Below, piece after piece: positions 25,847-35,211 of a stretch of 64,000 nucleotides of DNA. The stretch covers positions 42,618 to 106,617 of the forward strand of contig JAFGMG010000012.1 of the NCBI GenBank assembly GCA_016927655.1, in the 5' to 3' direction. Positions within the stretch are counted from its first letter, which is position 1; each line of letters begins with the position of its first letter. Under the pieces are notes generated by a model. The model was not told the origin of the DNA and ran no database searches. It saw nothing but the letters and a program-made list of their open reading frames with translations. Made by a program: the position numbers and the translations under genes. This DNA comes from Candidatus Dojkabacteria bacterium (GTDB lineage Bacteria > Patescibacteriota > Dojkabacteria > B142 > JAFGMG01).

Positions 25847-27259
25847 TTGTTGCTACAATTACTCATGCAAAAACAAAAAACAAAAATTCTTTGTACTATC
25901 GGACCATCTACATGGGATGAGAATGTCTTACGTTCTATGGTCAATGAAGGCATGACAATCGCAAGGATTAACGGAGCTTATGCAGACATTGCTGAATTAA
26001 AAAGAGTAGCAGCAACTATCAGATCAATTTCAAAAAATGTCGCCTTGATGCTAGATATAAAAGGGACAGAGGTTAGACTAAACAAATTCGAAACGCCGAT
26101 ACCGATCAAAATTGGAGATGAAATAGTACTTGGGAGTTCAAAGCAAAATGCTATTTACCCGGTGACTTATCCGGAGCTGTACAAAGACTTGAAGCCGGGC
26201 GATATGCTCAAACTTGATGACGGAAAGGTTTCACTTAGGGTGCAGAAAATCGAGAATCAAAAGATTATTGCCAAAGTGGGCCAAGGCAGAGAAATACTTC
26301 CCGGTAAAACGATAAATACACCGGGGATTCCTCTATCAAATCCGCCTCTAACCCCTACGGATATAGAGCAGATCAAATTTGCCGTAAATGATAATTGGGA
26401 CTTTGTTGCTGCCTCTTTCGTCAGGAACGCGCAGGATATTGAAGAGGTAAAAAAGCATCTTGGTAAATCAATTATCAAAGTTATGGCAAAAATTGAAGAT
26501 GAACAGGGGACAAAAAATATTGATGAAATAATTGATGCATGCGACGGGATTATTATTGCAAGAGGTGATATGGGAGTAGAAATGCCTTACGAACAGGTCC
26601 CGGCAATTCAGAAAATGATGGTGCAAAAATGCATATTGAAGGCCAAGCCTGCCATTGTCGCTACTCATATGCTCGAATCGATGATTGAAAATCCAAATGC
26701 AACAAGGGCGGAAATTAACGATGTAGCGAATGCAATATTTGATGGGACTGATTGCGTCTGGCTAAGTGCGGAGACCTCAAAAGGTAAATATCCTATTGAG
26801 GCGGTCCACACACTCAAAAGAATTTCACTCGAAATTGAAAAACATCTCATGCCGGAGATTTTGCACGGAGACCCTGATATCAACCCAATCACCGTTGCTC
26901 TTGCAAGAGGAGTAATCGACATTGTCGAGAGTGTGAGCATAGACAAAATTATTGTAGCAACAGGTACGGGAAAGACTGCAAGAATTATTTCGAGCTTCAG
27001 ACCGAGACAGCCAATTATTGCATTGACCAGCAATGAAACATACAAGCGTCAGCTCCAGGCTACTTGGGGAATAACCCCTATAGTTCTAGATACCGAAGTA
27101 AAAGACAGAGACAGAGGTGTGAAGAGAATTGTGAAAAGAGTCATGGCAGAAAAGCTCGTAGAGCCTGAGGATCTGGTTCTTGTGATAAGAGGCACTACCC
27201 CAATTACAAAGAAGACAAATTCCCTTGAGGTTGGCCTTGCTAAAGATATGGCTAAATAA
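25847..27259 (+). CDS. pyk: Pyruvate kinase
   Basis: KTKILCTIGPST...; ...IIARGDMGVE...; 470 aa. Confidence 0.88.
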   Translation: MLLQLLMQKQKTKILCTIGPSTWDENVLRSMVNEGMTIARINGAYADIAELKRVAATIRSISKNVALMLDIKGTEVRLNKFETPIPIKIGDEIVLGSSKQNAIYPVTYPELYKDLKPGDMLKLDDGKVSLRVQKIENQKIIAKVGQGREILPGKTINTPGIPLSNPPLTPTDIEQIKFAVNDNWDFVAASFVRNAQDIEEVKKHLGKSIIKVMAKIEDEQGTKNIDEIIDACDGIIIARGDMGVEMPYEQVPAIQKMMVQKCILKAKPAIVATHMLESMIENPNATRAEINDVANAIFDGTDCVWLSAETSKGKYPIEAVHTLKRISLEIEKHLMPEILHGDPDINPITVALARGVIDIVESVSIDKIIVATGTGKTARIISSFRPRQPIIALTSNETYKRQLQATWGITPIVLDTEVKDRDRGVKRIVKRVMAEKLVEPEDLVLVIRGTTPITKKTNSLEVGLAKDMAK

Positions 27260-27269
27260 CCACAGAATC

Positions 27270-28043
27270 CTACATAAACAGCATATAGGCAAGAATTGCT
27301 GACGCTGCCAGGATCGCAAGTATTAAAAATATTAATACAATTTGCATCATTCCTCCTGATCCACCTTTTTTGCCAGGTTTTTTTTGTGCTTTATCCATTT
27401 CGACTTTTTCATCCAAACTTGGAAGTCCTGTGTCTTCTGGTTGTGTGGGCGCTGCCATTATCTCTTCCAATTTATCTTGATTTGGTACTTCATGCACAGG
27501 TTCTGCAGGTTCTACTTTTACCGGTTGTTCCGCTGGTTGTTCTTCTGGTTGTTCTGCTGCAAGTTCAGGGAGTTTATCCAGTGTTACTTTTTCTTCAACT
27601 GGTTCTGCTATTTTGTTATCTGTAGATTCCATCATAGGAGCTGGTTCCATTACTGGTTCTGGGGTCATTGCCGGAGCTGGCTCTAATGTCGGTTCTATTG
27701 AAGGTTCGGGGGTAGTATCTTTAACCGGTTCCGGCATAGTAACCGGTGCCGGCTCAGTGCTTCCTTCTACTACATGTTCACTTCCATTGCCGTTTTTCAA
27801 TTCAGCATTTGGATCAATCGGCACTTCAGCCGGTTGCGTCACACCCGCTACAGTATCATCTGCAGGGATTTTCATTTCAGCATCCAGATCCACCGTTGTT
27901 GTTGCTGCGTCTTGATCTTGGTCTAAAGCTGCTTCTTGAGCTGGAGCCTGAGGTGTAGCCATTTCGTCCACAGGCGGCACTACTGGTGCTGCCGGATTTG
28001 TACTATCTAAAGCTGGTTCTGTACCTGTTTGTGGAATTGCCAT
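27270..28043 (-). CDS. Low-complexity Pro/Glu/Ala/Thr-rich protein with C-terminal TM tail-anchor
   Basis: Reiterated PEPV/TPEP/EPAP units at protein and DNA level. C-terminal MMQIVLIFLILAILAASAILAYMLFM. Confidence 0.5.
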   Translation of the reverse strand: MAIPQTGTEPALDSTNPAAPVVPPVDEMATPQAPAQEAALDQDQDAATTTVDLDAEMKIPADDTVAGVTQPAEVPIDPNAELKNGNGSEHVVEGSTEPAPVTMPEPVKDTTPEPSIEPTLEPAPAMTPEPVMEPAPMMESTDNKIAEPVEEKVTLDKLPELAAEQPEEQPAEQPVKVEPAEPVHEVPNQDKLEEIMAAPTQPEDTGLPSLDEKVEMDKAQKKPGKKGGSGGMMQIVLIFLILAILAASAILAYMLFM

Positions 28044-28151: not shown

Positions 28152-28226
28152 GGTGTAGTAGCCAAGTAGTAAGGCAACGGTCTGCAAAACCGTTATACGC
28201 GGGTGCAATTCCCGCCTACACCTCCA
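28152..28226 (+). tRNA. tRNA-Cys (GCA)
   Basis: Acceptor GGTGTAG/CTACACC, anticodon loop CTGCAAA, T-arm GCGGG-TGCAATT-CCCGC, discriminator U73 (a Cys identity element), CCA encoded. Confidence 0.85.
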
Positions 28227-28228
28227 AA

Positions 28229-28301
28229 GCCGGCCTGTCTACCGACAGGTAGACATGGTGGAATTGGTAGACCTGCCTGCCGGCAGGCAGGCACGCTGGA
28301 C
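28229..28301 (+). pseudogene. Decayed duplicate of tRNA-Leu positions 1-32, interrupted by two perfect palindromic mini-insertions
   Basis: GCCGG[cctgtctaccgacaggtagac]ATGGTGGAATTGGTAGAC[ctgcctgccggcaggcagg]CACGCTGGAC matches the intact tRNA-Leu at 28559 onward, outside the bracketed inserts, up to the anticodon loop. Confidence 0.6.
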
Positions 28302-28315
28302 ATTAGAAACATTAA

Positions 28316-28612
28316 ATGTACTATGTTTATGCCATTAAAAGTCAAATTAGAAATTACATCTACGTAGGACTAACAAATAATATCAAAAGAAGGCTTGACC
28401 AACATAACAAGGGGAAATCTAAAACAACTAAACCTTACAGACCGTTTGGATTGATATATTTAAAAGAAGTTCGTACACGGAAAGAAGCCAGAGAAATTGA
28501 GAAGAATCTTAAATCAGGCTATAGAAAAGAGTACCTAAAAGGTTTAAAATCTAATAATGCCGGGATGGTGGAATTGGTAGACACGCTGGACTTAAAATCC
28601 AGTGGGAGTTAA
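28316..28612 (+). CDS. GIY-YIG nuclease domain protein; last ~18 codons read into tRNA-Leu
   Basis: YYVYAIKS...IYVGLTNNIKRRLDQHN is a GIY-YIG signature. The ORF overlaps the tRNA-Leu gene at 28559-28612. Confidence 0.7.
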   Translation: MYYVYAIKSQIRNYIYVGLTNNIKRRLDQHNKGKSKTTKPYRPFGLIYLKEVRTRKEAREIEKNLKSGYRKEYLKGLKSNNAGMVELVDTLDLKSSGS

Positions 28613-28644
28613 ATCCCGTGCGGGTTCAAGTCCCGCTCCCGGCA
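28559..28644 (+). tRNA. tRNA-Leu (TAA), class II with long variable arm
   Basis: Acceptor GCCGGGA/TCCCGGC, anticodon loop CTTAAAA, variable arm TGGGAGTTAAATCCCGT, T-arm GCGGG-TTCAAGT-CCCGC, discriminator A. Confidence 0.88.
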
Positions 28645-28680
28645 CTTTACCTAATCAAACTAGCCTTCAAGACAATACTT

Positions 28681-29226
28681 ATGAAACGCTATTATGGGTT
28701 TTGGCTGCTTTTTGATTCCTCAACAAAAAAAAACTTGCGGCCAATTATTCAAACTTTAAGCAATAAATTCCTAGGTGGAGAAGTATTCGAGCCGCATATA
28801 TCAGTAAATTATCCTTCTTATTGCGAATTAAAAGATATTGTATTAAAAATTGAAGAAAACTTTATTAATCAGAAACAATTTACAGTCAATACTGAAGGGA
28901 TTGGAATGGAAGATACATGGTCAAAAACTTTGTATGTAAATATTAAAATGCAAAAAGAATTGATTAATATTAATAATAAACTAAAACAAATCTTTCCAAG
29001 AAAAGAAACTCCGAATGAGCAATTCCATCCACACATGAGTTTATTGTACAAACAAGGGTTGAGAGAAAAAGATAAAGTACTCTCTATCGAAAATATTTCT
29101 ATCCCTAAAAGATTACAAATAACTTCTCTTGCAATAATTGATCCTGGTATTGATAATGATAACTGGAAAGATTTCACACAATGGAAAATCCCATATAAGA
29201 TTGACTTTAATCATCCCACCACATAA
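28681..29226 (+). CDS. 2H phosphoesterase family protein (LigT / 2'-5' RNA ligase / cyclic phosphodiesterase-like)
   Basis: Two H-x-S/T-x motifs (FEPHISV, FHPHMSLLY) at the spacing typical of the 2H superfamily. Start set at MKRYYGF (28681), after the tRNA. Confidence 0.55.
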   Translation: MKRYYGFWLLFDSSTKKNLRPIIQTLSNKFLGGEVFEPHISVNYPSYCELKDIVLKIEENFINQKQFTVNTEGIGMEDTWSKTLYVNIKMQKELININNKLKQIFPRKETPNEQFHPHMSLLYKQGLREKDKVLSIENISIPKRLQITSLAIIDPGIDNDNWKDFTQWKIPYKIDFNHPTT

Positions 29227-30371
29227 AGCTCCTCCTGCGCTCTGGTAACTCCTGTGTAGAGCCAGCGCCTGAACATCTCATCATCCATCTGTGGAAAGCG
29301 TTCTTCGAAGAGTATAACTCTTTTTGCCTGGGAGCCCTGGGCTTTGTGAACTGTTAGAGCGTAACCGAAATCAAAAAGGTCTGAATCAATAGTTTTTCTT
29401 CTGTCAGTTCCCATATTCATTGGAGTCTGCGAATGAAATTGTTCTTTCAAAATTTCTCCTTTATAGAACTGATCGTAGTCTTCAAAATCAACTTCAGCAA
29501 GAAAATGTCTCTCCCCAAGACTCTCAATAGATTTCAAAGTCCCCGCCATCCCATTAAAAATCTGCATTTTGTGGTTATTTCGAAGACATATCACCCGATC
29601 TCCGGATTGCGGTTCTAAAGAATGAATATCCAGCAGGCTGCGAATGTACTTATTAAGTTCAACCCGGGTTCTATTGAAACCGCAAAGAACCATAGTATCG
29701 CTATCAAAACTGCAAAACAGATCTTCAATCAACTCGCCGGATTCACTATCAGCCCTGCTCAGTTTTCTTACTTTGTTTGAGAAATCACCAATTGGGATTT
29801 CTCCATTTTTCCTGACTTGTACAGATAGCTGAATGATTGGATTGTCTTTCGCCTGCCGGTGGATTTCCTCAAGTTTTAATAAAGGCTTTTCCATTAGATT
29901 GAAATTTGTCCCAACCGGAGGCAGCTGGCCATGATCTCCTACTGCAATAATTGGCACTTTGAAACTTAAGAGGTCCTGCCAGATTTCGCGCGTGACCATC
30001 GAAGCTTCATCAACCACAATAATATCCGCCTTCAGGTCATCTTTTTTCTCCCAGCCAATGATTTCCTGCGTTCGTGAATCTTCAATTGGAGAGTAAATCA
30101 AAGAGTGAATGGTTCCGGTAAAATCGCCTTTGAATTTTGCTTTCTGTTCCCTAATAGAATTATCCAAGACTCTTGCGGCTTTGCCCGTAAAACTGACAAA
30201 TGCCCACTTGGATTTCTCATCTTTTTTACGAGCCATTCTTCTAAGCAGCCCAATCAGAGTTGTCTTTCCTGTCCCGGCAAAGCCGCCAAGTGTAATAAAT
30301 CCCCCTTGTGGTTTTGCTGCCCATGAAAGTAATGCATCCAATGCGAATTTTTGATCATTTGATAGTTGCAT
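29211..30371 (-). CDS. RecD/Dda-like SF1B DNA helicase
   Basis: Walker A GGFAGTGKTTLIGLL, Walker B IIVVDEASMV, and C-terminal ALTVHKAQGSQ...TRAQEEL motifs. Start set at MQLSNDQKF. Confidence 0.78.
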   Translation of the reverse strand: MQLSNDQKFALDALLSWAAKPQGGFITLGGFAGTGKTTLIGLLRRMARKKDEKSKWAFVSFTGKAARVLDNSIREQKAKFKGDFTGTIHSLIYSPIEDSRTQEIIGWEKKDDLKADIIVVDEASMVTREIWQDLLSFKVPIIAVGDHGQLPPVGTNFNLMEKPLLKLEEIHRQAKDNPIIQLSVQVRKNGEIPIGDFSNKVRKLSRADSESGELIEDLFCSFDSDTMVLCGFNRTRVELNKYIRSLLDIHSLEPQSGDRVICLRNNHKMQIFNGMAGTLKSIESLGERHFLAEVDFEDYDQFYKGEILKEQFHSQTPMNMGTDRRKTIDSDLFDFGYALTVHKAQGSQAKRVILFEERFPQMDDEMFRRWLYTGVTRAQEELYVVG

Positions 30372-30379
30372 AGTAGTTT

Positions 30380-31654
30380 CTAATTTATACTCCCAGCCAC
30401 AAAGCCGCTGCTCCACGCCCACTGAAGGTTGTAGCCGCCGCATTCACCATCTATATCAAGGACTTCACCACAGAAGAATAATCCAGGCTGAAGTTTTGAT
30501 TCGAGTGTCGCAGGGTTAACTTCTTTTGTATCAACTCCACCCGCTGTGAAATGCGCTTCTTCAAAGCCGCGAACCGAATCGACTTGAAAAGTAAGACCGG
30601 TCAAAAGCTCTGCGATTTTGGATCTCAATTCCTTGTTAATCTCTGCGACTTTTTTGCTTGGATCCATTCCTGCTGTTTCCAAAATCGCAGGAAACACTTT
30701 CTTCGGTAATACTCCAATCAATGAAAAACCAAGGGTGCGATTTGGACTGTTGGTCCAGATGCGCTGAATCATTTCTTCGACCTCCCTGGCATTTTTTCCA
30801 GGAAAAAAATTCAAGCTGATCTCTGCTTTTTTTTCATTCAGGAAAAATTCTCTTGCAATTTCCCGGCTGATTTCCAGAATTCCAGGCGCAGACAAACCGT
30901 AATGAGCAAACATTACAGTCCCGGTGTTTTCTGCTATCACTTCACTACCAATCCTTGCTGTGATAGCAGCTTCCAATTTTGTTCCCTGCAGAATATGCAG
31001 CAGGGGGAAATTTTTAGAATCAGATTCCTTCGTAATATTTAAGCCTGAATAAACAGGGAATGTTTCTATAATCTTGTGCCCGAATTGCCTTGCAAATTCA
31101 TAACCATCCCCAGTAGATCCTGTTTGTTCATGAGTTTTGCCGCCAGTAGCAATTATTAATTTCGAAGTCCCGAAAACCCGTCCATCTGATATTTTAACTG
31201 CAAATTTATTATTTCCAATTTTTTTTATCTCTTTAACTCCCGCTCCATTTATCAATTTTATATTTAATTCCCGGAGTTCGTATTCAAGCACATCAACTAC
31301 TGACTGAGCCTGATTGCCAGCAGGAAACATACGCCCATTATCCTCCTCGACAAATTTGACACCGAGATTTTCGAAAAATTCCTTTGTCTCTTCATAGCCG
31401 AATTTATTGAAAACAGACATAACAAATTTCGGATTATTGCCAAAATAGTGTTTTACCTGCCTTTTATCTTCTTTGGCAAACTTATTCGAGATATTGCACC
31501 TCCCATTTCCGGTAAGTAGAATTTTCTTCCCAAGCTTCTCTTTTTTCTCCAGCAGGACGACTTTCCTGCCAGTTCTAGCAGCTGTAATCGCAGCCATGAT
31601 TCCGGATGCCCCGCCGCCAATAATTACAGTTTCATATTGTAGTAATTTTTCCAT
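30380..31654 (-). CDS. HI0933/BaiN-like FAD-dependent oxidoreductase
   Basis: VIIGGGASGIMAAITAARTGRKVVLLEKKEKLGKKILLTGNGRCNISN. Confidence 0.78.
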   Translation of the reverse strand: MEKLLQYETVIIGGGASGIMAAITAARTGRKVVLLEKKEKLGKKILLTGNGRCNISNKFAKEDKRQVKHYFGNNPKFVMSVFNKFGYEETKEFFENLGVKFVEEDNGRMFPAGNQAQSVVDVLEYELRELNIKLINGAGVKEIKKIGNNKFAVKISDGRVFGTSKLIIATGGKTHEQTGSTGDGYEFARQFGHKIIETFPVYSGLNITKESDSKNFPLLHILQGTKLEAAITARIGSEVIAENTGTVMFAHYGLSAPGILEISREIAREFFLNEKKAEISLNFFPGKNAREVEEMIQRIWTNSPNRTLGFSLIGVLPKKVFPAILETAGMDPSKKVAEINKELRSKIAELLTGLTFQVDSVRGFEEAHFTAGGVDTKEVNPATLESKLQPGLFFCGEVLDIDGECGGYNLQWAWSSGFVAGSIN

Positions 31655-31722
31655 AGAAGTATTATATCATTCTTGATTTTGCTTAACTATTATGGCAAAT
31701 TGATACTGGTTAAATATTAATT

Positions 31723-32514
31723 ATGACAAAGTCAAATCGGAAGCAAAAAAAACTTGCTCTCTCACTTCGAGGCGGCGGGGCAAGGTGTGCGGCGTATCTT
31801 GGAGCCCTTAGAGCTTTTGAAGAAAATGATATCAAAATTGACATGATCACAGGTGCAAGCGGCGGAGCAATCACTGGCGGATCGTACGCTGCTGGAAAGA
31901 GTATTGATGAGATTATAGAGCATTTTAAAAATATTAAATACTCAAAGTATATTGGCCTAGATTCATTAAAAAATATCTCAATAGCAAGCGAAGACAAATC
32001 AATAGAATATGCAAAAGAACTAGTCGGCGACATGCGAATTGAGTCAACAAAGATTAAATTCTGGCCCCAGGTGACAAGGATATTAACCGGTGATGTGGAA
32101 TACCTAGCAACCGGCTCGCTTGCTGAATCAGCTGTTGCTTCATCTGCAGCCCCTGGATTTATGAAACCAGTTACAATTAAAAACAAAAAATATATTGACG
32201 GGGATATTTCCGGAGGTTTTGGAGCAGAGTTCCTCAGAAATAACGGCGCAGATATTGTAATTGGGCTCGCAGTGGGAGAATTCAAGTTCTTTGAAAATTA
32301 CGATACAACATTGGATAAGCTTCTCCTTCCTTTTAATATCATGCTTTACAGAATCAAGAATCTGGACCTGAAACTAAATCCTGTTGATTTTCTGATAGAT
32401 GGTATGGGCTTGGAGTATGGCTTTTTTGATTTCAAAAAAGCCCAGGAAATAGCGGAACATGGGTACGAAATGACTATGGAAAAAATTCCTGAAATAAAAG
32501 CCCTGCTATTCTAA
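31723..32514 (+). CDS. Patatin-like phospholipase
   Basis: Oxyanion GGGARCAAYLG and nucleophile elbow GASGG. Confidence 0.68.
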   Translation: MTKSNRKQKKLALSLRGGGARCAAYLGALRAFEENDIKIDMITGASGGAITGGSYAAGKSIDEIIEHFKNIKYSKYIGLDSLKNISIASEDKSIEYAKELVGDMRIESTKIKFWPQVTRILTGDVEYLATGSLAESAVASSAAPGFMKPVTIKNKKYIDGDISGGFGAEFLRNNGADIVIGLAVGEFKFFENYDTTLDKLLLPFNIMLYRIKNLDLKLNPVDFLIDGMGLEYGFFDFKKAQEIAEHGYEMTMEKIPEIKALLF

Positions 32515-34244
32515 TCCTTCAGCTCACCTGTCTGCAGGTTCCACAGACCATTATAAAGCCCGCCCTTTTTGGCTGAAAGTTCTGTGTGAGTACCTTCCTC
32601 GAATATCTCCCCATCTTTAAGCACAATTATCCTGTCTGCTTTTCTGATAGTTGAAAGCCTATGTGCAATCACAATAGTAGTTTTATCTTCCGCAATTTCC
32701 CAAAATGCTTGCTGAATAGCTTTTTCAGACTCGGAATCCAGCTGGCTCGTAGCTTCATCAAAAACTACGATCGGCGGGTTTTCAAGAATCGTTCTTGCAA
32801 TCGCCAGTCTCTGTCTTTGTCCGCCCGATAATTTGATCCCGCGCTCTCCTACTAATGTGTCATATTTCTCAGGCAGCCGCTCTATAAATTCATCCAGATT
32901 CGCTAATTTTGCAGCATTTTTGATCTCCTTCAAACTCGCATTCTCTTTCGCGTAGCCGATATTAAATCTTATAGTATCATTAAACATCATTGTGTCTTGA
33001 GGAACAATTCCGATTGCTTTTCTCAAACTTTCCTTCGTTAGATTTTTGATATTCTTCCCGTCAATTAATATTTCCCCGCTTGTTACGTCATAAAATCTCA
33101 ATAATAATTTCACGAGAGTCGATTTGCCGGCTCCGGAAACTCCAACCAGAGCGACAGATTCATTTGGTTTGATATCCAGATTAAAATTGCTGATTACCTT
33201 TTCTCTTTCTCTGTACTGAAAATTTACATTTTTGTATTCAATATGCCCCTTTACATTCTTCAGGATTTCGGCATCCGGCTCTTCGACAATCTCGGTCTTC
33301 TCGTCTAGAACTTCAAGATACTTTTCAAAATCAGTCTGATTTTTTGTCAATTCCCTAAATCTAAAAATCACCTCTCCAAGACGCGGGAAAAATGAAATCG
33401 AAAGAGTAACAACCAAAGCAAATTCTCCCACGCTCATTGTGCCGGCAAGAAGCTGTTCTCTGCTGACTAACATCAGAAGTGTCACACTCACAGTGATCAG
33501 AATTCCGATCCAGAGTTCAATTACTCTAAACGAATTAGCATAGCTCCAGATTGCTTTTGTCCAGTTATCATACTGATTGGTTAACCGTTTTTGCTCTAGA
33601 TTTTCATTCCCGAAATATTTCACTGTATCATAATTAATCATATTATCAGCAATTATTCCAGTGATATTGTCTTCCTGTCTGTTCAGCTCTCTTCTGGTCC
33701 GCATATTTATTTTTATCAAGACATATGTAAAGCCAAGATTTAATACAAACCCGACTAAAATTATTATCATTAAAATCGGGCTGACCAGAAAGAATGCCAC
33801 AGCAGTAAATATCAGATCGATCAACACACGCAGCAGATTTCTCTCAATTTCGATATTGTAGCTCCAAAAGGCATTCTCACCTCTTCGCATCATAGAAATC
33901 AATGAACCGCTTCTTTTATTTGTGTGATAAAAAACATCAAGTTCGTGAAGTTTTCTAAAAATATCAAGTTTCATGTCTCTATTTGCATTGATCATATATT
34001 TATCATGGATCAAATTTCCCAAAGGGCCGATCAGCGTAGAGAAAATCTGCGGAAGAGCAAATAGCAAAACATAGAAAAGCATCTTCGAATAATCTCCCTC
34101 CCCCACTGCATTAAAAATATATTTGGTCATATAATACGCTGTATTGTCTGCAATCCTAGCCAGAGCCAGAAGCAGCATACCGATAAAAAAACTGTATTTG
34201 TAACGTTTGATATATTTTAGAGAGAAACGGATGATACGTCTCAT
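32511..34244 (-). CDS. ABC exporter, fused permease/ATPase (MsbA-like)
   Basis: Six-TM N-terminal half; Walker A GVSGAGKST, signature LSGGQRQR, Walker B IVVFDEATS. Confidence 0.85.
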   Translation of the reverse strand: MRRIIRFSLKYIKRYKYSFFIGMLLLALARIADNTAYYMTKYIFNAVGEGDYSKMLFYVLLFALPQIFSTLIGPLGNLIHDKYMINANRDMKLDIFRKLHELDVFYHTNKRSGSLISMMRRGENAFWSYNIEIERNLLRVLIDLIFTAVAFFLVSPILMIIILVGFVLNLGFTYVLIKINMRTRRELNRQEDNITGIIADNMINYDTVKYFGNENLEQKRLTNQYDNWTKAIWSYANSFRVIELWIGILITVSVTLLMLVSREQLLAGTMSVGEFALVVTLSISFFPRLGEVIFRFRELTKNQTDFEKYLEVLDEKTEIVEEPDAEILKNVKGHIEYKNVNFQYREREKVISNFNLDIKPNESVALVGVSGAGKSTLVKLLLRFYDVTSGEILIDGKNIKNLTKESLRKAIGIVPQDTMMFNDTIRFNIGYAKENASLKEIKNAAKLANLDEFIERLPEKYDTLVGERGIKLSGGQRQRLAIARTILENPPIVVFDEATSQLDSESEKAIQQAFWEIAEDKTTIVIAHRLSTIRKADRIIVLKDGEIFEEGTHTELSAKKGGLYNGLWNLQTGELKD

Positions 34245-34608
34245 GATATTTTCGGAAAAAATTCGCCATCATTGTAGCATAGCTTTTATGCCTAGGCTAT
34301 ATACTTTAAGCTAATTTTTCCACCTCTGCTTTAAGATCAAAGACAATAGCATTGATTCTGCTAAGCGTCTCGTATAGTTTGTCCCGTTCATTTGCATTTA
34401 GAGAAGTCCTGGCTATTTGCAAAAGCCGATCTGTATGCCCGATAATTTCAATTGCCTTGTCTGTTATAGAATCGTTTATTGACATAATTGGATGGGTAAA
34501 AAATAAAATAATTAAGAAGTGTTAATATATCAGAGTATAGAATTTAGTTCATGGAAAATAGATAACAATTCTATTCATATAGAAGAAGTTTCAGTATATA
34601 GTTAAATC

Positions 34609-35211
34609 ATGAACAAAGACAATACAATCGGGATACAAATTAAAAAAGCCAGAACTGAAAACGGACTCTCACAAGAAGAGCTGGGAGAGAAAATCGGCGT
34701 AACCTGGGAAATGATCAGCAGATATGAAAATGGCAGAAGCAGTCCTTCAAGACATTTAGATAAACTGGCTAAAGTATTGGGTAAATCTGTCGCATATCTT
34801 TATGGACAGGATACTGACCCGATTAAGTATAACGTTGAAAAAATCGCCAGTGCACTTCGCGAACAAGGAATTGGCTACGAGAGAAAAGCTAATGAGGTCG
34901 TTCTCGTAGATGATATCGCTATTCTTGGATTTGAAAGAAGCCTGAAATTAACCAGACAGTATTACAATGCTCCTGAATGGCTTTTGGAAAAATATGGGGA
35001 TGTTTTTGCATTAAGACTAAATAGTATACTGCCTGATGAATTGGACACAAATGAAGGCGATATTGGATTTTTCTCCACAAGTTTGAAACCAACTACAGGA
35101 GACATAGTTCTTGCTTATTCCGGGAAAAAATATTCACTTAAGAAATTCTCATTAAAGTTAAAAGGCGAGGTCCTCGCCGTACTTCTTGTGCAGGAGAAGA
35201 GATTTAGATAG
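34609..35211 (+). CDS. XRE-family HTH repressor with C-terminal LexA/CI-like (S24-like) domain
   Basis: HTH LSQEELGEKIGVTWEMISRYENGRSSPS. C-terminal GDIGFFS...TTGDIVLA resembles the S24 fold. Confidence 0.5.
   Translation: MNKDNTIGIQIKKARTENGLSQEELGEKIGVTWEMISRYENGRSSPSRHLDKLAKVLGKSVAYLYGQDTDPIKYNVEKIASALREQGIGYERKANEVVLVDDIAILGFERSLKLTRQYYNAPEWLLEKYGDVFALRLNSILPDELDTNEGDIGFFSTSLKPTTGDIVLAYSGKKYSLKKFSLKLKGEVLAVLLVQEKRFR

Follow-up and report, generated by a model that had tools for sequence, protein, structure and literature searches.

A CPDase-clade 2H phosphoesterase gene, a small GIY-YIG ORF and a native SF1B helicase gene lie side by side at a tRNA locus in Candidatus Dojkabacteria

We analysed a 64-kb stretch (the window) of a Candidatus Dojkabacteria (CPR) contig in which a 2H phosphoesterase gene and a helicase gene are convergent and overlap by 16 nt (29211-29226), with both ORFs intact. 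On the plus strand upstream of the 2H gene lie tRNA-Cys, a GIY-YIG ORF and tRNA-Leu(UAA). The features of the locus are as follows:

28152-28226, plus strand: tRNA-Cys(GCA), native (ARAGORN; Rfam 67.5 bits)
28229-28301, plus strand: relic of a tRNA-Leu 5' half (matches the intact tRNA-Leu exactly over 18 nt and 10 nt)
28316-28612, plus strand: small, stand-alone GIY-YIG nuclease ORF (Pfam GIY-YIG 68.6 bits; G+C 0.305)
28559-28645, plus strand: intact tRNA-Leu(UAA) (ARAGORN; Rfam 63.9 bits)
28650-29209, plus strand: insertion of about 560 nt with the 2H ORF as its sole content (alignment to comparison locus L001; sequence reading)
28681-29226, plus strand: 2H phosphoesterase of the CPDase/Cpd1 clade, 181 aa (Pfam, fold, motifs; G+C 0.295)
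29211-30371, minus strand: compact SF1B (Dda/RecD-like) DNA helicase, 386 aa (Pfam, PHROG, synteny; G+C 0.422)
30380-31654, minus strand: HI0933-like (aminoacetone-oxidase family) flavoprotein (Pfam 289 bits; TIGR00275 436 bits)

These coordinates and gene calls agree with those of a first-pass annotation of the same DNA, and its 2H and SF1B assignments are borne out by Pfam and PHROG scores and by motifs. The helicase start at 30371 matches the NCBI 386-aa model and the lengths of homologues (382-405 aa). The flavoprotein gene, which shares the helicase's strand and lies 8 nt upstream of it, is also adjacent to it in L001; it is context only and stands outside any system. No further copy of the 2H, GIY-YIG or helicase gene was found within the 64-kb window. 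For comparison we assembled a small sample of relatives, 21 loci in all, of which seven contain helicase homologues (L001-L007, about 5 independent contexts) and 14 contain 2H homologues (L008-L021, about 8). L001 is the nearest relative with data, and its helicase is 83% identical to that of the window.

The 2H protein carries the twin motifs H39-I-S-V-N-Y and H118-M-S-L-L-Y123, and a 35-sequence alignment of its family shows no variation at H39, P117, H118 or Y123. Its two Hx(T/S) motifs on a pseudo-two-fold alpha+beta fold and its top fold matches, all of which are 2H proteins, place it within the 2H superfamily. It scores 41.0 bits against Pfam 2_5_RNA_ligase2 (cut-off 27) and, above the gathering threshold of 21, 38.3 bits against Pfam CPDase (PF07823), for which members of its family also have precomputed matches. 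The AlphaFold model (pLDDT 96.2) aligns in Foldseek with the Arabidopsis CPDase structure 1JH6 at TM 0.83 (E = 1.4e-11, rmsd 2.4 A), compared with TM 0.50-0.60 for LigT/ThpR, 0.66 for YjcG and 0.48 for Acb1, and the sole significant sequence match in the PDB is another Arabidopsis CPDase entry (1FSI, E = 1.6e-5). The protein does not group with ThpR orthologs: the ThpR model TIGR02258 gives 22.3 bits against a cut-off of 65.7. (Grouping with ThpR was one of the outcomes that, for the first-pass annotation, would have spoken against its reading.) A distal HxSxxY motif is the signature of Cpd1/CPDase, and HxTxxR that of ThpR (PMC4201822). The distal motif of the window protein is HxSxxY, with Tyr and not Arg, and in place of the HxTxxF and HxTxxR of the ThpR clade it has HISVNY and HMSLLY.

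By Pfam, motifs and fold the protein thus belongs to the CPDase/Cpd1 clade and not to LigT/ThpR, and 2'-5' ligase activity is therefore not expected of it. The first-pass description of a LigT-like 2H enzyme was right about the 2H phosphoesterase and wrong about LigT. The NCBI name of the identical 181-aa protein is '2'-5' RNA ligase family protein [Candidatus Dojkabacteria bacterium]'. Since its TIGR02258 score, TM values and motifs are not of the ThpR type, both 'LigT-like' and '2'-5' RNA ligase' are misleading, and 'CPDase-like' fits. The closest known proteins are Arabidopsis CPDase (1FSI, 1JH6, 1JH7) and yeast Cpd1 (PF07823), which share with it a length of about 180 aa, the fold, the HxS/T pair and the Tyr three residues after the distal Ser (HxSxxY). 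It differs from them in being only about 20% identical, in being bacterial (CPR) rather than eukaryotic, and in having no known Tpt1 or tRNA-splicing context. Alignment to 1FSI gives it no matching Cys, and the Cys pairs that we take to form the plant disulfides are accordingly not conserved. E. coli ThpR (LigT/YadP; 4QAK, 5LDI), an RNA 2',3'-cyclic phosphodiesterase that leaves a 2'-phosphate end (PMC4201822), shares the superfamily and the two-His mechanism. By analogy with the Arabidopsis and yeast enzymes, the window protein would hydrolyse a cyclic phosphodiester, with H39 as general acid and H118 as general base, plus Tyr123. The activity that defines the CPDase/Cpd1 family is hydrolysis of Appr>p or 2',3'-cNMP, which yields the 1''- or 2'-phosphate.

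Several other assignments of the 2H protein were tried and rejected. An Acb1-like anti-CBASS enzyme is a far poorer match than CPDase (7T26, TM 0.48, E = 5e-3), and fold matches for AKAP18-like, Usb1-like and CNPase-like assignments are likewise much poorer. A word-indexed protein search returned only the protein itself, and the homologues used here came from an exhaustive HMMER search; a scan of genome contigs with the 2H family alignment gave no match. The bacterial CPDase-like family comprises about 540 cluster representatives, and to our knowledge none of its members has been characterised.

The helicase translation shows Walker A (GTGKT), DEAS and other SF1 motifs, and it matches Pfam AAA_30 (70.6 bits), AAA_19 (66.2), UvrD_C_2 (68.1) and SH3_13 (24.7) as well as PHROG 325, 'Dda-like helicase' (304 bits). 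Its motor, SH3-like insertion, UvrD_C_2 domain and PDB matches to RecD2, Dda and RecD place it among SF1B Dda/RecD-like helicases. It falls short of the RecD2 model TIGR01448 (141.5 bits against a cut-off of 500, the match spanning only positions 310-688 of 713) and of the RecD model TIGR01447 (104.6 bits against 310). The motor, the SH3-like insertion (SH3_13) and the UvrD_C_2 C-terminus are shared with T4 Dda/PHROG 325 and Deinococcus RecD2 (3UPU, 3E1S), but unlike RecD2 the window protein lacks N-terminal domains and has no RecB/RecC context. Phage Dda-like helicases, at about 390 aa, are collinear with it over their full length; unlike phage Dda, it is chromosomal, vertically inherited and CPR-wide.

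More than 7,900 helicase homologues were found at E<=1e-10. Among the best 120, identity ranges from 54 to 83% and length from 375 to 405 aa, and the sources include Dojkabacteria, Nomurabacteria, Shapirobacteria and Pacebacteria, with contigs of up to 1.09 Mb; a scan of genome contigs with the helicase alone gave no match. The helicase G+C is typical for the window. In L003/L004 and L006/L007 it is syntenic with PK, tRNA-Cys/tRNA-Leu, HTH, a 59-aa ORF and patatin, in an orientation opposite to that of the window. The helicase is a native, vertically inherited chromosomal gene common across CPR, and its role, judged by family analogy, is presumably that of a 5'-3' DNA helicase for replication or repair.

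These properties bear on the first-pass proposal that the GIY-YIG, 2H and Dda-like helicase genes form one module, for RNA end-healing and repair or for defence, on the remnant of a phage-like element. The genes are physically adjacent, the helicase has full-length phage homologues at 35-38% identity that are annotated as Dda-like helicases, and it matches PADLOC models for the helicases of candidate defence systems, for example PDC-M16A at 151 bits. Against this, the helicase is 55-83% identical across CPR phyla in a syntenic chromosomal context, and it is convergent with the GIY-YIG and 2H genes and is therefore not co-transcribed with them. The co-localisation in relatives by which the link was to be judged is lacking: neither a 2H nor a GIY-YIG match occurs at any of the seven helicase loci, an SF1B helicase match occurs at none of the 14 2H loci, and all three genes occur together at 0 of the 21, while L001 has the same junction without the 2H gene. 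The ORFs that converge on the helicase gene in relatives (L002, 137 and 219 aa; L003, 119 aa; L006, 241 aa) did not prove to be diverged 2H genes either, as none gave a 2H signal in Pfam or tblastn.

No phage or defence context was apparent around the genes either. The 6 kb to either side contain no integrase or phage gene. The 2H protein has no PHROG, PADLOC or phage tblastn match and no relative in a scan of viral contigs (IMG/VR), and its best viral fold match reaches TM 0.62-0.67. PADLOC found no named defence system complete; the helicase alone matches helicase models (PDC-M16A, PDC-S68, type IV RecD), and the GIY-YIG protein reaches only 16.7 bits. A prophage, ICE or island at the tRNA was rejected, there being no integrase and no foreign block, and a duplication of the 5' half of the tRNA rather than its 3' end. 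The idea of an integrated-element remnant likewise gives way to a helicase and two tRNAs that are native, syntenic Dojkabacteria genes. The supposed pairing of nuclease and ligase in tRNA end-healing falls with the CPDase-clade assignment, the known activity of that clade being hydrolysis rather than ligation, and with a GIY-YIG protein that appears to be homing-type and not an RNA nuclease. We regard a single three-gene module as very improbable.

The tRNA part of the locus has a history of its own. All the Dojkabacteria relatives that we examined (L003, L004, L006, L007) have tRNA-Cys and tRNA-Leu(UAA) as a pair. In the window, 2 nt after tRNA-Cys, a relic covers approximately positions 1-33 of tRNA-Leu. 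The pseudo-tRNA of the first-pass annotation is thus real, with the 5' half of tRNA-Leu repeated exactly over 18 nt (28255-28272 = 28565-28582) and 10 nt. In L006 tRNA-Leu begins 3 nt after tRNA-Cys, which puts the relic at the ancestral tRNA-Leu position. Two hairpin inserts split the relic, one at 28234-28254 and the other a perfect 20-nt palindrome at 28272-28291, and the RNA fold of the relic has a free energy of -41.8 kcal/mol (z = -4.8). The GC palindrome has no other copy within the 64-kb window.

Between the relic and the intact tRNA-Leu, and extending with its 3' end into the latter, lies the GIY-YIG ORF. Its product belongs to the GIY-YIG superfamily (PF01541, residues 1-71, threshold 22.6 bits), and no DNA-binding domain was detected in it; a scan of viral contigs gave only generic N-terminal matches. 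The ORF is absent between the tRNAs in L003/L004 and L006/L007. It is a lineage-specific selfish insertion between the tRNA pair, separate from the 2H gene, and the small protein resembles free-standing homing-type DNA endonucleases and not an RNA nuclease. A precedent is T4 SegB, a GIY-YIG homing endonuclease that stands free within a cluster of tRNA genes (PMC2330249). Like SegB, the window ORF stands alone between tRNA genes and is polymorphic in presence between relatives. Unlike SegB, it encodes a catalytic domain of about 80 aa alone, its homing is putative, and it accompanies a duplicated 5' tRNA half with hairpin inserts. In literature searches, small GIY-YIG genes had not been described from CPR tRNA loci. 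Separately, we observed small GIY-YIG ORFs beside hairpin-interrupted relic tRNA halves in two unrelated contigs.

The 2H gene is the second foreign feature. The GIY-YIG and 2H ORFs are the only two small ORFs that are compositionally foreign. Both are low in G+C and absent from the tRNA locus in relatives, and the first-pass annotation was right to suspect something foreign there. Among 55 ORFs (mean G+C 0.391, sd 0.034), the 2H ORF ranks lowest in G+C (z = -2.9). A 6-nt direct repeat, ACTTTA, marks the edges of the inserted segment (28644-28649 and 29204-29209), and the ORF's final five codons and stop lie opposite the helicase 3' end, on its antisense strand. In L001 there is no 2H gene, and a truncated tRNA-Leu lies 4 nt after the helicase stop; this junction was established by alignment and Rfam (truncated tRNA at L001 2478-2540) on a contig that stops inside tRNA-Leu (WJLN01000125.1, assembly GCA_014728495.1). 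After tRNA-Leu, L003/L004 continue with a methyltransferase gene and L006/L007 with a transposase gene. Promoter and terminator scans at the locus gave signal at the level of shuffled sequence, with none evident for the 2H gene. The 2H gene therefore looks like a recent, promoterless, single-ORF insertion of about 560 nt.

The opposite direction of change would have the 2H gene ancestral at the junction and lost by deletion in the L001 lineage, with the protein functioning as above. CPR genomes are streamlined and deletion-prone, which favours a loss, and L001 is the single close relative that informs on the junction. But the more distant L003/L004 and L006/L007 also lack a 2H gene next to tRNA-Leu, the 2H gene is the ORF with the lowest G+C, as noted above, the closest homologue anywhere is 42% identical, and the named matches to the family profile include no Dojkabacteria other than the window protein itself. 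The last five codons and stop, borrowed from helicase antisense DNA, fit an ORF-sized insertion. An ancestral 2H gene is thus improbable.

A further alternative keeps the helicase out and treats the 2H gene and small GIY-YIG ORFs as loosely associated passengers of tRNA loci. In one version, GIY-YIG homing would have co-converted the tRNA-Leu 5' half, perhaps the whole tRNA, together with a 2H cassette from a donor of lower G+C; in the other, the CPDase-type enzyme would have a tRNA-related role, for example in clearing 2',3'-cyclic phosphate ends or Appr>p that arise when tRNAs are cleaved and repaired, and hence be co-transcribed with tRNAs. The atypically low G+C of both ORFs and their joint absence at the locus in relatives suit such an association, as do positions elsewhere. 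The 2H ORF starts 36 nt after tRNA-Leu in the window. Of the 8 other contexts, 2 have a tRNA immediately next to the 2H homologue: in L020/L021 the homologue starts 4-5 nt after tRNA-Ser(UGA), in the same orientation and lacking its own promoter, and in L008-L010 it overlaps a convergent tRNA-Glu. Of about 7 other contexts, 2 have a small GIY-YIG ORF within 2.1 kb of the 2H homologue (0.95 kb in L017, 2.0 kb in L020), in each case beside a tRNA or tmRNA gene. Because of these proximities, there may be some dependence among 2H, GIY-YIG and tRNA genes.

Yet 2H genes also occur without GIY-YIG or an adjacent tRNA (L011, L012/L013, L014/L015, L016, L018/L019). The GIY-YIG copies share only about 35% identity among the window, L017 and L020, and they differ in where they lie and which way they point with respect to the 2H gene. 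The flanks of tRNA genes are generic insertion hot spots, so that co-location needs no functional link. The counts are too small for statistics, and L001, which lacks the 2H gene, is silent on GIY-YIG. Such an association between passengers seems unlikely to us, if less so than the two alternatives above.

The explanation that we favour, and consider probable, is that three independent features came to lie side by side through genome rearrangement and two small insertions. A conserved Dojkabacteria block of HTH, the 59-aa ORF, patatin, HI0933 and the helicase is inverted in the window lineage, which would have brought the helicase 3' end beside tRNA-Leu. Afterwards the low-G+C 2H segment of about 560 nt would have entered the 4-6 nt gap between tRNA-Leu and the helicase stop. 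The GIY-YIG insertion would have broken the ancestral tRNA-Leu in the anticodon loop and brought a replacement 5' half, so leaving the relic half upstream. The 2H gene is presumably expressed, its mRNA probably arising by read-through from the tRNA-Leu promoter and being freed by tRNA processing.

The genes at this locus are ordinary representatives of known families that became neighbours through rearrangement and insertion, and the result is mainly corrective: a tempting candidate, the 'GIY-YIG + 2H + Dda' system, proves false and drops off the list. It also reveals what lies behind the database label '2'-5' RNA ligase family protein', namely an enzyme of the CPDase/Cpd1 type in a CPR bacterium. 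The occasional direct fusion of bacterial CPDase-like genes to tRNA transcription units is a modest lead toward cyclic-phosphate and ADP-ribose-cyclic-phosphate metabolism in minimal genomes, and the small GIY-YIG ORFs beside hairpin-interrupted relic tRNA halves are probably more interesting. It is a speculative and rather doubtful idea that CPR carry promoterless, tRNA-punctuated CPDase-type 2H cassettes 3' of tRNA genes that are mobilised with GIY-YIG elements of about 80 aa, elements that bring a replacement 5' half and leave hairpin-studded relic halves behind. If true, such cassettes would form a kind of tRNA-targeting mobile unit not described before, with a cargo acting on the cyclic-phosphate products of tRNA cleavage.

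The GIY-YIG, 2H and helicase genes of this Candidatus Dojkabacteria (WS6, CPR/Patescibacteria) contig adjoin as the first-pass annotation had described, and their domain assignments all lie above the curated cut-offs in Pfam, NCBIfam and PHROG scans. The 3′ ends of the helicase and 2H ORFs overlap by 16 nt in the following arrangement:

28152-28226, + strand: tRNA-Cys
Between tRNA-Cys and the GIY-YIG ORF, + strand: 73-nt stretch that repeats the tRNA-Leu 5′ half exactly over 18 nt and 10 nt
28316-28612, + strand: GIY-YIG ORF, 98 codons
28559-28645, + strand: tRNA-Leu(UAA)
28681-29226, + strand: 2H ORF, 181 codons
29211-30371, - strand: SF1B helicase, 386 codons

Protein searching recovered over 7,900 homologues of the helicase (E<=1e-10). 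The top 120 of these (54-83% identity, 375-405 aa) span many CPR phyla on contigs that reach 1.09 Mb. Phage Dda-like helicases are collinear with the window protein yet share only 35-38% identity with it, and the protein falls far under the RecD2 and RecD equivalog cut-offs. Gene neighbourhoods were compared for five orthologues. Two Dojkabacteria lineages, represented by comparison loci L003/L004 (helicase 68% identical to the window's) and L006/L007 (60%), share the order pyruvate kinase, small ORF, tRNA-Cys, tRNA-Leu(UAA), variable gene, HTH, 59-aa ORF, patatin and helicase; L006/L007, but not L003/L004, have an HI0933-like flavoprotein gene between the 59-aa ORF and patatin. The window retains the HTH-to-helicase block in inverted orientation, which turns the 3′ end of the helicase gene towards the flank of tRNA-Leu. 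Given the CPR-wide homologues, the shared synteny and a G+C content typical for the window (0.422), the helicase is a chromosomal gene conserved in the CPR, and it and the tRNA pair are resident genes rather than the integrated-element remnant proposed earlier.

Other features of this neighbourhood were observed. The pyruvate kinase gene (25847-27259) lies on the strand opposite to its neighbours in the window and is co-directional with them in L003/L004/L006; its orientation is a single-gene inversion, additional to that of the HTH-to-helicase block (29211-35211). The minus strand at 27270-28043 encodes a low-complexity, Pro/Glu/Thr/Ala-rich 257-aa protein that has a hydrophobic C-terminal segment and no Pfam match. 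Relatives carry ORFs of similar size in the same slot before tRNA-Cys, with undetectable sequence similarity to the window protein. L005 (6207-9167), from another Dojkabacteria genome, has a helicase orthologue with 57% identity, preceded on its own strand, at a distance of ~630 nt, by a gene for the RNA ligase RtcB; this single instance is probably coincidence.

The first-pass annotation had suggested a link among the three genes, and functional or mobile-element unity among them is not supported. We sampled 14 loci with 2H homologues (L008-L021, ~8 independent contexts), whose neighbours are housekeeping or miscellaneous genes, including UvrA, Obg, EF-P, sortase, methyltransferases, deaminase, HAD, NUDIX, SmpB and an aminoacyl-tRNA synthetase. 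In tblastn searches, the window helicase had no match in any of these 14 loci, and the 2H and GIY-YIG proteins had none in the seven helicase loci (L001-L007). For these loci, the lack of co-localisation is the outcome that the first-pass annotation had named as refuting the three-gene link.

Next after tRNA-Leu, L003/L004 carry a methyltransferase gene and L006/L007 a transposase gene. L001, the nearest relative with data at this junction (helicase 83% identical), shares the window's HI0933-to-helicase arrangement, and alignment places only 4 nt between its helicase stop and the reverse complement of tRNA-Leu(UAA), inside which the contig ends (Rfam tRNA, 33.1 bits, 5′ end missing). Relative to L001, the window has ~560 additional nt (28650-29209), flanked on both sides by the 6-nt repeat ACTTTA; this segment contains the 2H ORF behind a leader of 31 nt. 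Sequence antisense to the 3′ end of the helicase gene supplies the final five codons and the stop of the 2H ORF. The G+C content of the 2H ORF (0.295) is the lowest among 55 long window ORFs (mean 0.391, sd 0.034) and close to that of the GIY-YIG ORF (0.305). The parsimonious reading is that the 2H gene is a recent single-ORF insertion in the window lineage; its deletion in the L001 lineage is a conceivable alternative.

An exhaustive HMMER search identified 539 cluster representatives of the 2H family at E<=1e-3 (best 42% identical). In a 35-sequence alignment, H39, P117, H118 and Y123 are invariant and F36, P38, S120 and L121 nearly so. Arabidopsis cyclic phosphodiesterase (CPDase) is the only significant PDB sequence match, and the predicted model (pLDDT 96.2) matches its fold with TM 0.83 and E = 1.4e-11; matches are weaker for YjcG (TM 0.66), E. 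coli LigT/ThpR (0.50-0.60), Acb1 (0.48), and AKAP18 and Usb1 (<=0.63). The ThpR clade has HxTxxF and HxTxxR motifs, the Arg of which is replaced by Tyr in yeast Cpd1 and Arabidopsis CPDase (PMC4201822). The window protein instead has HISVNY and HMSLLY, with the same Tyr, and misses the ThpR equivalog model (22.3 bits against a cut-off of 65.7). Sequence, fold and motif thus assign it to the CPDase clade as a CPDase/Cpd1-type enzyme, replacing its earlier LigT-like label. Its predicted activity is hydrolysis of cyclic phosphodiesters (2′,3′-cNMP, RNA>p or Appr>p) rather than RNA ligation. PHROG, tblastn against phage genomes, an IMG/VR scan and a viral fold library yielded no phage relatives of the protein. 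NUDIX hydrolase genes occur directly downstream of the 2H homologue in L016 (1468-2519) and 1.5 kb from it in L020 (2940-3449), two cases only, which could be compatible with ADP-ribose-derived substrates.

The GIY-YIG gene is best read as selfish DNA that was inserted separately. In L006, 3 nt separate tRNA-Cys from tRNA-Leu. At this ancestral tRNA-Leu position, 2 nt after tRNA-Cys, the window has a relic 5′ half of tRNA-Leu(UAA) (tRNA positions 1-33; 28229-28315), followed directly by the GIY-YIG ORF and then the intact tRNA. Two inserts interrupt the relic, a 21-nt hairpin (28234-28254) and a perfect 20-nt palindrome, CCTGCCTGCCGGCAGGCAGG (28272-28291), which has no further copy in the 64-kb window. 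The relic is predicted to form a pair of strong hairpins (-41.8 kcal/mol, z = -4.8). On the simplest reading, a homing-endonuclease-like GIY-YIG element would have entered the tRNA-Leu anticodon loop, bringing a replacement 5′ half. Fungal mitochondrial GIY-YIG elements that carry a replacement gene segment are one analogue. Another is T4 SegB, a documented homing enzyme of a tRNA cluster that, like the window protein, is a free-standing GIY-YIG enzyme at tRNA genes (PMC2330249). An unrelated contig (L017, 1-470, minus strand) encodes an 87-aa GIY-YIG ORF, then a relic of a tRNA 5′ part, then an intact tRNA cut by the contig end. This relic contains exact 11-nt and 8-nt repeats at differing spacings and is interrupted by three short hairpins. 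That the arrangement recurs suggests that small GIY-YIG elements of this kind come systematically with hairpin-split relics.

Two associations persist after these comparisons. A tRNA directly adjoins the 2H gene in three of ~9 contexts, the window counted, and small GIY-YIG ORFs, both with a tRNA or tmRNA gene next to them, occur 0.95 kb (L017) and 2.0 kb (L020) from 2H homologues. They may reflect only the tendency of tRNA flanks to gather insertions, and we keep an association of 2H and GIY-YIG genes with tRNA loci, helicase not included, as an unlikely rival reading. The 2H homologue overlaps a convergent tRNA-Glu in L008-L010 and starts 4-5 nt past a same-strand tRNA-Ser(UGA) in L020/L021 (4740-5531), and the window's CPDase-type ORF starts 36 nt past tRNA-Leu (tRNA and ORF together, 28559-29226). 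The 2H ORFs of L020/L021 and the window have no recognisable promoter or Shine-Dalgarno sequence, which suggests tRNA-punctuated, near-leaderless expression. In L020 (6998-7778), the GIY-YIG ORF (78 aa, starting MYYVY) belongs to the same family as the window's; the tmRNA gene lies 134 nt upstream of it, and a long imperfect hairpin precedes the ORF. The tRNA-linked 2H cassette and the relic tRNA halves are small leads that may merit follow-up.
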